From IMG/VR virus record IMGVR_UViG_2706794685_000007: a stretch of 20,000 nt of DNA. One strand, 5' to 3'. The translations under genes were made by a program, and so were the position numbers. The notes under the pieces were generated by a model. The model was not told where the DNA came from. It saw only the letters and a program-made list of their open reading frames with translations, and made no database searches. Position 1 is the first letter of the stretch, and every line of letters starts with the position of its first letter. Below are positions 2,496 through 9,664 of the stretch, one piece after another. The stretch comes from an uncultured virus (IMG/VR IMGVR_UViG_2706794685_000007) (lineage: Duplodnaviria > Heunggongvirae > Uroviricota > Caudoviricetes).

Positions 2496-2524
2496 GTGGA
2501 CTCCATCCAGTGTCATAAAGAGTT

Positions 2525-2546
2525 GCGGCTGGCAATCGCCAGCCGC
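2525..2546. other. GC-rich hairpin downstream of rnhA / in the leader of 2001..2495
   Basis: GCGGCTGGC-aatc-GCCAGCCGC perfect 9 bp stem. Confidence 0.5.
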
Positions 2547-2625
2547 CTTTCTCGTTCCATCCTGGAACTGTGTCTTACCGACACATTGTCATCCTGACGC
2601 CGATAAGATACATGATTTATAATGA

Positions 2626-2643
2626 TAGGTAAACACTTACTTA
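2626..2643. promoter_or_regulatory. operator-like motif A (TARRTA-N6-TAYYTA), copy 1
   Basis: TAGGTA aacact TACTTA, overlapping the rnhA stop codon; four more copies in the window. Confidence 0.65.
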
Positions 2644-3234
2644 CTGTTTGTTATAAACAAAACCAATATCTTTCTTGTGAGGCATATCTGCTGCTGAAAA
2701 AGCTGCGATCTTCGCGAGTCGATCACATATTTCATTTTCACGATGCCCGGCGTGACCTTTAACCCACTTCCAGCGAACATTATGTCGACTTGCGGCCTCA
2801 TCCAGACGCTTCCACAGATCAACATTCTTTACCGGTTTTTTGTCAGAAGTCATCCATCCATTGCGTTTCCACCATTTCATCCACTGTGTCATGCCGTTTT
2901 TCAGATACTGGCTATCAGAGTGCAAAATAACGTTGCATGGATATTTCAAACGCTCCAGCCCGATAAGTGCCCCCATCATCTCCATGCGGTTATTGGTGGT
3001 GCTATGAAAACCATCTGAGAACTCGCGTTCCTCGCCACGATACTGGAGAACGATACCGTAACCGCCCGGGCCACCCGGATTTTTAAGGCAAGAGCCATCA
3101 CTAAAGATTTTCACGGTTTTAAGCTGGGGATTGAACTCTACGACAGGCGTTGTGGGATTGGTGCGGGGAGAATTTTTGTTTTTGTCTTTTTTGCGAGTTT
3201 TTGCTTGCGGTCGGGCTGGTGTCTTCGTTGTCAT
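2641..3234 (-). CDS. rnhA: ribonuclease HI with basic N-terminal extension
   Basis: RNase HI motifs FSDGS..NPG, TTNNRME, SDSQY, WVKGHAG..NE.CD.LA with all catalytic acidic residues present. Start at ATG 3234 after AGGAG (the ORF track start at 3318 runs into the structured non-coding element). Confidence 0.95.
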
Positions 3235-3321
3235 ATAAACTCCTGAATCAAGCGCCGCGCCGATTTTTCCTCGCGCGTGCGCACACGCGTGCGTGTTAAT
3301 AATTATTAAAATAAACAAATT

Positions 3322-3763
3322 ACTTCCCAGAACAGGTTTTTATAAACCTGAACTGAACGAACGAAGTGAGTGAAGTTCACCTCGAACGAAGTGAGAGGTT
3401 GTCTTTTCAGGTAATACTCTCCCAGGGAGGTGAGTATAAAATTCCTCACCAACCTGGTCGTTTCATAACCTGAAAAGCTATGGTCTAAGTCTACTGCCAG
3501 CTTAGACTTGGGAAGTTATGGATGACAGCACCCCAGAACCGAGATCTTCCCACACTTTATGAAGGGGAGTACTGGATTCAACCTCTCGAAACACCCCAGA
3601 CTCGACAATCATAAAGTGACCCTTGTCTCCGCTCACTTTGGTTCCCCCTTCCCCGACACCTAAACGGCACCGGTTCTACGCTGGTAGTGAGCTTTTTTAA
3701 ACCTGACGCCAGTGACGCTTACCCCCACCCATCAGGTCGAGTCTCCAGTCTACGACTGGAAAC
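3322..3763 (-). ncRNA. putative large structured non-coding element (RNA and/or ssDNA) upstream of rnhA
   Basis: No ORF of 60 aa or more. At least ten helices read by eye: 3322-3329/3509-3516, 3333-3350, 3350-3378, 3379-3399, 3403-3412/3468-3477, 3483-3489/3501-3507, 3553-3562/3609-3618, 3598-3606/3736-3744, 3631-3637/3686-3692, 3744-3760. Predicted promoter immediately upstream. Confidence 0.65.
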
Positions 3764-3769
3764 TATCAG

Positions 3770-3798
3770 ATCTTAGCACTTACAATTCATCTTATGAA
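3770..3798 (-). promoter_or_regulatory. predicted sigma70 promoter for the structured element and rnhA
   Basis: Minus strand TTCATA (3798-3793), 17 nt spacer ending in TGC, then TAAGAT (3775-3770), i.e. an extended -10. The predicted TSS near 3763 falls just before the first hairpin. Confidence 0.55.
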
Positions 3799-3815
3799 TA
3801 GTTTGTACTTATCTA

Positions 3816-4046
3816 TCATTTCGATTGATTATTTTCTCGACCATGTAGTTGAACATTCAAGGCAAACACCTCGTTGATCAACTCACCTAAAAGCTGTTCA
3901 ACAAGTTCGCGATGCTCCCCAAGATGCAAGCACTTAATTGCCCACTCGTACAAGTTGAAAGCCTGCTCACGATCTTTCATCATTTCACGAGCCTGGGCCA
4001 GAAAATCGCTGTCTACGAGCGCAACGACATTAGTCGGGTATGACAT
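3816..4046 (-). CDS. hypothetical small helical protein
   Basis: ORF track 3816..4070; a better start is ATG 4046 (MSYPTNVV) after AAGGAAACCAAC. Confidence 0.7.
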   Translation of the reverse strand: MSYPTNVVALVDSDFLAQAREMMKDREQAFNLYEWAIKCLHLGEHRELVEQLLGELINEVFALNVQLHGRENNQSK

Positions 4047-4152
4047 GTTGGTTTCCTTAAAGTGGTTCATAAAATCGATTTTAAAGCGTCTGGGAAGGGG
4101 GGTCTAGTGGATTCTGTAGTGATGTTCAGGTCTGGAGTCTCTGATACAAAAC

Positions 4153-8560: not shown

Positions 8561-9664
8561 TCACACCGCCACTGGAACCTTGATCCACGGTAGAGGGTCA
8601 TAGCCAAGAATCAGAATATCGTCCCATTTGAAATCATCCAGCTCAGACCATTCATGAGGGAAAATAACGACCGGATCTGAATGCTCTGGAGCCTGTCGTT
8701 TCATTAGCTCACACACACCTTCCATGTGGTTGTTGTACAAATGCACGTCAAAGCCAAAATGCACAAATGCACCGGCCATGTGACCCGTAATCTTCGCGAG
8801 AAAATGAGTGAGAATGCCATAGCCAGCAATATTGAATGGCATACCAACAAAAGTGTCTACGCTACGCTGTACGAGGCAGGAGTTGAGGATGCGTTTGGGG
8901 ATTCCAAGTTCATCCAGTTCAGTTTCAGTAACACTGCCGTCCATCTCCAGATCGTATAGCATCTTGGTGTAGATAGACTCATAACCGAAGCGACTGTGTT
9001 GAAGACCAATGTCAGTTGCCATCGTTAAACGGGTTTCAAAATCAAGCTCACGACTCCACAAAGAGAAGACAAAGTGGCAAGGTGGCAGTTTCATATCCTC
9101 AAGCTCGCCTACGTTCCATGCGTTAAGCATGATGCGACGATCGGTAGGGTTCGTGCGCAGTGTGTCGACAATACGCTGTAGCTGATCGATTTCACGGGAC
9201 AGCACTACGCGATCTTCACTGATACCCAGGTATCCCTCGACTTTGTACCCGCGTTCACGGAAAGTAGCGATCTTGCTCAGATATTCACTATGGCTCACGA
9301 TGCGGGTATCTTCCCATCGACGCCACTGCTTACCGTAAACCGGCCCCAAATCGCCATTCTCATCGGCCCATGCATCCCAAATCTTAACGCCGTTATCCTT
9401 AAGAAATTGGATGTTGCCCGTGCCTTTCAGATACCACTCAAGTTCGACAAGCAGTGGCTTAAGATTTACCGCCTTTCCAGAAATAAGCGGCACAGTCCCA
9501 CCAGTAAGCATGTAGTAAGAGGGAACGTAGCAGGTGCTTAAAGTACCAGTGCCTGTGCGATCATCAGTCTGCACGCCGCTTTTAAGCACCGTCTCAATAA
9601 CTTTTGCATACGATGCGTTTGTTACCTGACCGTTCGTATGCTCACGATTCAAAAGGAGTGACAT
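8561..9664 (-). CDS. thyA: thymidylate synthase with two insertions
   Basis: DRTGTGT, IWDAWADENGDLGPVYGKQWR, DRRI, LPPCH, QRSVD..GMPFNIA, HLYNNH. Confidence 0.96.
   Translation of the reverse strand: MSLLLNREHTNGQVTNASYAKVIETVLKSGVQTDDRTGTGTLSTCYVPSYYMLTGGTVPLISGKAVNLKPLLVELEWYLKGTGNIQFLKDNGVKIWDAWADENGDLGPVYGKQWRRWEDTRIVSHSEYLSKIATFRERGYKVEGYLGISEDRVVLSREIDQLQRIVDTLRTNPTDRRIMLNAWNVGELEDMKLPPCHFVFSLWSRELDFETRLTMATDIGLQHSRFGYESIYTKMLYDLEMDGSVTETELDELGIPKRILNSCLVQRSVDTFVGMPFNIAGYGILTHFLAKITGHMAGAFVHFGFDVHLYNNHMEGVCELMKRQAPEHSDPVVIFPHEWSELDDFKWDDILILGYDPLPWIKVPVAV

Follow-up and report, generated by a model that had tools for sequence, protein, structure and literature searches.

A putative large structured RNA upstream of the RNase HI gene in SSU5/pHCM2-type phage-plasmids of Enterobacteriaceae

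The DNA analyzed here (IMG/VR record IMGVR_UViG_2706794685_000007, an uncultured virus of the Caudoviricetes; its 20,000 nucleotides are referred to as the window) comes from an SSU5/pHCM2-type phage-plasmid of Enterobacteriaceae. The minus strand carries every gene of the 20 kb, and the gene set is that of a phage DNA-metabolism block, which includes SbcCD-like proteins, NrdAB, ThyA, DHFR, a Pol III epsilon-like exonuclease, and Dam. From Dam onward, the order is an 84-amino acid (aa) protein, a gap, RNase HI (encoded by rnhA), and then small proteins that include a TerB-domain protein (Table 1). The gap and the structured element within it are the subject of this work. The region of the element is 100% identical in Escherichia phage CMS-2020a, 97–98% identical in PhiR41_1 and Cyrano, and 87% identical in Salmonella phage SSU5. 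A first reading of the sequence (the original prediction) had described ~580 nucleotides (nt) without a gene and rich in helices, and had proposed a device coupled to RNase H. The description of the gap holds: it measures 581 nt, has no conserved open reading frame (ORF), and has a predicted fold with a z-score of about −7.

Table 1. Coordinates of the element, its parts, its neighbors, and the genes that take the place of rnhA in other loci. Positions are those of the window, except where a locus handle (L) precedes them.
Feature	Position	Strand	Details
rnhA, RNase HI, 197 aa	2641-3234	−	Pfam RNase_H E 1e-44, residues 40-178
Non-coding gap, 581 nt	3235-3815	−	between rnhA and the 84-aa ORF
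Tail module	3261-3296	−	alternating purine-pyrimidine tract 3296-3272, then purine run AGGAAAAA, then TCG
T-rich tail, variable length	3301-3321	−	directly after helix 12; indel-rich; terminator scan silent
3' domain, closing helix 12 around four hairpins	3322-3516	−	low diversity; fold −78.5, z −7.5
Remainder of the G-rich 5' domain: P3 (long-range helix) and helices 4–11	3517-3692	−	covarying pairs
P2, hairpin with G-rich inner part	3700-3738	−	5/15 pairs change on both sides
P1, 5'-terminal hairpin	3741-3763	−	begins 6 nt past the −10; pairs 17:38 and 20:35 covary
Sigma-70-type promoter	3770-3798	−	−35 TTCATA 3798-3793, 17-nt spacer, extended −10 TG-n-TAAGAT 3778-3770
Upstream backbone gene, 84 aa (76 aa from second Met)	3816-4070	−	PHROG 5343, function unannotated; helical
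rnhA replaced by LprI-domain lipoprotein	L210:2029-2970
rnhA replaced by JukA/JukB anti-phage defense genes	L184:1837-3020		JukA E 6e-65
rnhA replaced by betT and DUF2254 protein	L216:4765-8104		plasmid pECL-90-1
rnhA replaced by 269-aa gene	L167:484-1293		opposite strand

The homologs examined comprise an alignment of 87 distinct copies, made up of the window, 82 full copies from viral, metagenome, and genome contigs, three named phage records, and one 5'-truncated copy from Buttiauxella. No ORF of 22 aa or longer is intact across all 86 aligned copies. The one annotated ORF, of 44 aa (3636-3502; CYRAN_81 in phage Cyrano), lies inside the element and is intact in 59/86 copies; indels shift its frame in 23. 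The window contains neither a tRNA nor a tmRNA. A search of the whole window against Rfam (4227 models, E ≤ 1) returned two weak matches, both outside the element, and a search with the element alone (E ≤ 10) returned four matches of 15–21 bits against thresholds of 47–79, all to unrelated families. In this comparison, which the original prediction had proposed as a check, no family reached its gathering threshold. A full-text literature search (bioRxiv supplements excluded) found no description of the RNA; a preprint on heteroresistance that was considered deals with a different phage-plasmid family. The element appears to be undescribed. It belongs to no Rfam family, and part of it is annotated as a hypothetical protein in one phage record.

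The element is found in 12 of 50,697 phage records and in 687 of 72,556 plasmid records (PLSDB), with hosts that include Klebsiella, Escherichia, Enterobacter, Salmonella (including pHCM2 of Typhi CT18), Citrobacter, Cronobacter, and others. Across 61 distinct copies of the upstream gene, the gap, and rnhA, aligned and divided into 30-nt bins, nucleotide diversity is 0.11–0.22 per bin in the two flanking coding genes, 0–0.09 over most of 3655-3359, and 0–0.08 in the 3' domain; the stretch that holds the promoter and the first hairpin reaches 0.35–0.42. Invariant runs of at least 12 nt are confined to the element, and the longest, a 43-mer in the 3' domain (3400-3358), holds a direct repeat (CACTTCGTTCG) at a spacing of 25 nt. 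The same ranking is seen among plasmids. In PLSDB, the element is mostly 80–95% identical, with two records at 60–80%, and the 60–80% band holds 362 of 679 records for rnhA and 543 of 727 for the upstream gene together with dam. In lineages other than E. coli, the element mostly falls at 80–95% vs. 60–80% for its neighbors, and 53 divergent loci give median identities of 88% (nt) for the element and 80% (aa) for each neighbor.

Beyond these phage-plasmids, an nhmmer search upstream of distant phage RNase H loci (L074-L082) found no related RNA, and a search with the RNase H protein in genome contigs found chromosomal rnhA genes only, all without the element. A pattern of 20–26 nt is all that two Bacteroidetes and two metagenome contigs have in common with the element, and they were taken as chance or unrelated matches. 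A contig of Buttiauxella gaviniae (L163:1443-1776) carries the element without the promoter and the first ~175 nt, with neither the 84-aa gene nor rnhA nearby; this copy looks like a recombination remnant.

As minus-strand RNA, the whole gap is predicted to fold at −213.9 kcal/mol (z −7.1), which none of 100 shuffles equaled; for the plus strand, the value is −175.4 (z −6.95). Inverted repeats of 10–13 nt are present in the gap. Two domains can be distinguished. The 5' domain (3517-3763) is strand-specific, folding at −90.8 on the minus strand (z −2.5) vs. −61.7 on the plus strand (z −1.1). It has a GC skew of +0.26, and runs of three or more G occur 3.2 times per 100 nt vs. 0.7 window-wide. 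The 3' domain (3318-3516) is composed of near-perfect hairpins. Both of its strands fold, the minus strand (−78.5, z −7.5) slightly better than the plus strand (−72.6, z −6.3). The original prediction had assigned the 5' domain to minus-strand RNA and the 3' domain to hairpins of plus-strand DNA; the first assignment stands, whereas nothing marks the 3' hairpins as plus-strand DNA. The long-range helix P3 pairs 3692-3687 with 3636-3631, and the 3' domain is closed by the 8-bp helix 12, which pairs 3516-3509 with 3329-3322. A 14-nt motif (sense UCG-NN-UCUGGGGUG) occurs twice, 63 nt apart (3529-3542 and 3592-3605), in invariant sequence, and a shorter UCUGGG copy lies within the closing helix (3322-3331); judging from the sequence, these copies could be repeated binding sites.

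The folding of the element is under selection. A consensus structure of 120 pairs was derived with RNAalifold from the 87-copy alignment, and 99.7% of the cells at these pairs are paired. Changes on both sides of a pair are seen in 14 pairs, compared with 7.4 ± 0.9 in shuffled alignments, none of which (0/500) reached 14. In slid controls, in which the partners were moved by 1–3 columns, only 2–5 pairs show such changes. When individual cells are counted, 199 are changed on both sides vs. 47.5. The covarying helices are P1, P2, the long-range P3, helices 4 and 7, and hairpin 13. The absence of conserved, covarying helices would have spoken against the original prediction, and the homologs bear the prediction out on this point. 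P1 differs in sequence in every lineage while the hairpin is always kept, and its covarying pairs pass through several states (17:38 as CG, UA, AU, and UG; 20:35 as CG, UA, UG, and GC). The double-sided changes in P2 include 43:80 (AU/GC), 44:79 (CG/UA), and 48:75 (AU/GC), and those in the rest of the 5' domain (3517-3692) include 94:178 (UA/CG/UG), 113:151 (GU/GC/AU), and 195:257 (CG/UA). In hairpin 13, pair 305:329 is GU in 57 copies, GC in 25, and AU in 5, and pair 306:328 is CG, UA, or UG, so that the changes run through G:U. Helices 14–17 show no variation and are hence uninformative on covariation.

The same pairs were used to compare the two strands. Read as the sense strand, 99.8% of pairs are canonical, 12% of them as G:U, vs. 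87.9% for the antisense strand, on which 13 pairs are broken in most copies. The consensus energy of 25 representatives is −144.95 for sense and −114.88 for antisense. The G:U pairs point to the gene-sense strand as the strand of the RNA.

With regard to its ends, the element has a promoter-like sequence at one side and a T-rich tail at the other. TANNNT is present at the aligned −10 position in 86/86 copies, 26–29 nt ahead of P2, as TAAAAT (31 copies), TAAGAT (29), TAGAAT (22), TACAAT (3), or TAGGAT (1). The −35 is poorly conserved, and a generic promoter scan did not flag the site. The promoter of the original prediction is nevertheless supported by its −10 box. Transcription from it would start at about 3763, directly at the stem-loop P1. 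At the other end, the 16 nt past helix 12 hold a median of 10 T, and transcription may end at this tail in a non-canonical manner. An AT-rich stretch of variable length then precedes the alternating purine-pyrimidine tract of the tail module, which is perfect over 25 nt here and 9–33 nt long in relatives. The tail module was present in the 18 loci compared, 9 of them without rnhA, with tracts of varying length, and homology to the rnhA-type loci stops just past it. The variation in tract length resembles that of a slippage-prone repeat, and the tract is kept even where rnhA is absent.

Transcript levels are available from a re-analysis of RNA-seq data (GEO GSE154648) from E. coli LF82 carrying the phage-plasmid Cyrano (PMC9928086). 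In overnight LB, CYRAN_81 is expressed at 12 times the local background (PMC9928086). Its normalized values are 113 and 121, while the means are 9.5 for CYRAN_80, 8.4 for rnhA, and 8.3 for CYRAN_83, and CYRAN_81 ranks highest of these four genes in all five conditions (PMC9928086). After 6 h in macrophages, the log2 fold change is 3.5 for CYRAN_81 and 3.0 for rnhA, with flanking genes overall at 2.7–3.1 (PMC9928086). Profiles for both the + and the − strand are plotted in this source, and the library was apparently stranded (PMC9928086). By these values, RNA of the element is ~12–14 times more abundant than that of both neighbors, rnhA included. Since ~117 units for the element compare with 8.4 for rnhA, the steady-state levels of the two are decoupled.

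The link to RNase H is frequent and dispensable. rnhA follows the element in 104 of the 115 loci with enough flanking sequence, and the remaining 11 keep an intact element and tail with different genes downstream (Table 1), preceded in 9/11 by a shared junction of ~35 nt. The complete plasmid pECL-90-1 (106,755 bp), which carries the element, gave no match to the RNase H family, whereas 9 of 14 control genomes did. Conversely, two viral contigs have a close relative of rnhA and no element. Because the 84-aa gene is constant (110 of 111 loci have it ahead of the element) and rnhA is replaceable, the element is best regarded as part of the backbone, and rnhA as the commonest occupant of a cargo slot. 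The linkage to rnhA that the original prediction expected in relatives is thus common and not universal. Obligate coupling to RNase H, on which that prediction was built, is not supported, given the exchanged cargo, pECL-90-1, and the decoupled levels; a leader specific to rnhA is unlikely in view of the same exchange and decoupling.

Taken together, the account that we favor, at somewhat better than even confidence, is that the gap encodes an independent structured non-coding RNA of ~440–460 nt, on the same strand as its neighbors, which is made from the dormant phage-plasmid. Two of the features looked for in a gene for a non-coding RNA are found here, namely compensatory pairs beyond those of controls, and a promoter of its own along with accumulation apart from the neighbors. 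According to this account, the sigma-70 promoter with its conserved −10 would start the RNA at about 3763, at a 5' hairpin of the stabilizing type. The RNA would then fold into two domains: a G-rich, covarying 5' domain, and a nearly invariant 3' multi-hairpin junction with its long-range closing helix. It would accumulate in the plasmid (lysogenic) state, in which the surrounding lytic DNA-metabolism genes are silent, and most of it would end, or undergo processing, ahead of the gene that fills the cargo slot, usually rnhA. Finally, it might work in trans by serving as scaffold or decoy to a host factor or backbone protein that is conserved across Enterobacteriaceae. The role of scaffold or decoy is a guess; a conserved partner is favored because the 3' domain is nearly frozen while the neighboring protein genes drift. 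The nearest complete replicon contains no second copy of the element.

Several points weigh against this account. As the original prediction had remarked, there is no clear terminator ahead of rnhA, and the terminator scan flagged no canonical one from the promoter to that gene; most lineages have helix 12 followed by the T-rich tail, which is itself weak in the Klebsiella clade, with ~5 T per 16 nt. The expression of CYRAN_81 was counted over the annotated ORF of 135 nt, which inflates its FPKM (fragments per kilobase per million) somewhat. The ends of the transcript are placed from the sequence and its strand from the pairing, and the two raw-read runs looked at lacked the plasmid. The structure that was tested had been predicted on the same alignment, which favors structure, and the sequences are related. 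Because the 3' domain is invariant, covariation cannot tell an RNA role of this domain from a DNA role, and both of its strands fold. Lastly, no partner or target emerged: complementarity of more than 12 nt to the element is absent elsewhere in the nearest complete replicon.

Among the alternatives, the one that survives best, although we consider it unlikely, is a cis-acting leader, attenuator, or insulator, for which the element would be an entry platform to the cargo slot that is active in lysogeny; the majority of transcripts would stop where the RNA ends, and a regulated fraction would read through. Its structure may also block leaky transcription from the upstream lytic operon. The arrangement of the slot agrees with this alternative, as varied cargo comes immediately after the element, behind the shared junction and mostly in its orientation. 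So does the 12- to 14-fold drop in level from the element to rnhA, and both rise in macrophages, by log2 fold changes of 3.5 and 3.0 (PMC9928086). However, other flanking genes rise equally (2.7 and 3.1), and no specific read-through is visible in those values (PMC9928086). An RNA of ~450 nt with a frozen 3' domain also far exceeds the needs of known leaders. Moreover, JukA begins ~200 nt past the element, which leaves room for a promoter of its own, and the next gene in L167 is on the opposite strand.

A second alternative, which we regard as rather improbable, is that the transcript is the primer RNA of an R-loop-primed second origin for lytic replication. RNA II of ColE1 is a promoter-driven, folded, G-rich transcript of ~500 nt that is processed by RNase H. 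By analogy, the G-rich transcript would stay on its template near the AT-rich and alternating tail, RNase HI from the phage or the host would cut it, and the resulting 3' end would prime synthesis. The element resembles RNA II in being a folded, G-rich transcript, usually adjacent to rnhA, with an AT- and purine-rich 3' side. It lies within a DNA-metabolism and replication block, its 5' domain has the GC skew of +0.26 and 4–5 times the background of G runs, rnhA is adjacent in the 104 loci, and the AT-rich stretch, the GC tract, and the purine run downstream are kept in all lineages compared. On the other hand, the element differs from RNA II in having no homology to it, no antisense promoter of the RNA I type, no hallmarks of an origin, and no Rop-like match for the small upstream protein, and at least one plasmid does without RNase H. 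DnaA-box-like sites are at chance (22 vs. 20.8 expected), there are no iterons beyond one two-copy repeat of 11–13 nt, and cumulative GC skew has no turning point at the element. The promoter scan found no antisense promoter that reads into the element; by this weak, consensus-based test, the sole plus-strand promoter-like site nearby (3757-3786) points away from it. Rfam RNAI gave no match at E ≤ 10. In addition, the RNA is made in lysogens, in which lytic replication is off (PMC9928086). The replicon lacks Pol I, its polymerase being of the DnaE type, and pECL-90-1 carries the element but lacks an RNase H gene, although host RNase HI could serve there. A version that takes the polymerase into account, in which the RNA would be both primer and activator of a second RNA-primed origin, with an R-loop at the tail, trimming by RNase HI, and extension by the phage DnaE-type replisome, is slightly more doubtful still. 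If true, it would place the principle of ColE1 (or of the herpesvirus oriLyt) in a phage of 110 kb.

Very unlikely is a third alternative, that the element is mainly a site on the DNA, for packaging, recombination, protein binding, or cruciform extrusion, with an incidental transcript. The near-perfect hairpins of the 3' domain, which fold on either strand, the invariant 43-mer with its direct repeat, and the border with a recombination-prone cargo slot are what such a site might look like. Against it, compensatory changes in helices 1–4, 7, and 13 keep pairing over sequence, the G:U intermediates pair only as sense-strand RNA, the promoter and the 5' stabilizer hairpin are conserved, and the RNA accumulates (PMC9928086). 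That the locus is a gene for a small protein of the CYRAN_81 type is more improbable yet: the ORF is a coding sequence in the annotation of phage Cyrano and is listed as an expressed ‘moron’ in PMC9928086, but its reading frame is broken in some copies, as described above, and the variation in sequence tracks base pairs. A retron-like template or decoy (msr/msd) copied by a reverse transcriptase, as in the original prediction, has next to no chance of being correct, as its likeness is limited to a structured RNA beside RNase H, a link that is not obligatory, while RVT_1 (PF00078) has no match in 5/5 complete replicons with responding control genomes, which contradicts a reverse transcriptase encoded in cis, and no Rfam retron family was matched.

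The independent non-coding RNA proposed here can be compared with two groups of known RNAs. OLE, GOLLD, ROOL, raiA, and HEARO are large non-coding RNAs of bacteria or phages, several hundred nt long, whose functions are unassigned or were established recently; they have multi-domain folds supported by covariation, and they are often carried by phages or mobile elements. To our knowledge, families of this type occur mostly outside Enterobacteria. The element is like them in its size, its multi-domain covarying fold, its lack of coding capacity, and its mobile carrier. It is unlike them in having no Rfam match, in being confined to SSU5/pHCM2-type phage-plasmids of Enterobacteriaceae, and in being unusually invariant. 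The second group consists of c4 of P1 and P7, CI of P4, and CA of N15 (the Rfam C4 family), which are regulatory RNAs of prophages expressed in lysogeny. Like these, the element belongs to a dormant phage or plasmid genome, has its own promoter, and is highly structured and non-coding. In contrast, it is 4–6 times longer, has no match to Rfam C4, and has no complementary sites of more than 12 nt in the replicon.

Some observations concern the neighboring genes. The AlphaFold model of the upstream 84-aa protein is all helical (pLDDT, the predicted local distance difference test, of 77.7). The protein gave no Pfam or PADLOC match, its sole PHROG match is unnamed, and comparison of the model with the PDB gave nothing at E ≤ 0.001; a Rop-like role was considered for it and is unsupported, there being no structural match. 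RNase HI has a lysine- and arginine-rich extension of ~37 aa ahead of its Pfam domain (3124-3234, minus strand), and the part of rnhA that codes for this extension has the highest nucleotide diversity of the gene. The stretch 2499-2620 (minus strand), lying between rnhA and the gene after it (start 2516), holds short hairpins with GGA in their loops and then, just ahead of the ribosome site of that gene, a strong terminator-like hairpin (2546-2525). It has a weak match to Rfam CsrB (17.6 bits vs. a threshold of 71, E 0.29) and may bind CsrA or represent a small RNA. Farther away, the thymidylate synthase (8561-9664, minus strand; 367 aa) aligns to its Pfam model in two separate segments, suggesting that it carries an insertion absent from the usual enzyme.

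Phage-plasmids of the SSU5/pHCM2 type are common in clinical and environmental Enterobacteriaceae, as seen in the number of PLSDB records matched. The element is the fixed border of a cargo slot able to hold defense genes such as JukAB. An RNA of ~450 nt that is better conserved than the neighboring protein genes and that is made in dormancy likely matters for the persistence of these phage-plasmids or for their communication with the host. It would rank among the few large structured RNAs of unassigned function in the best-studied family of bacteria, in which genetics is easy.

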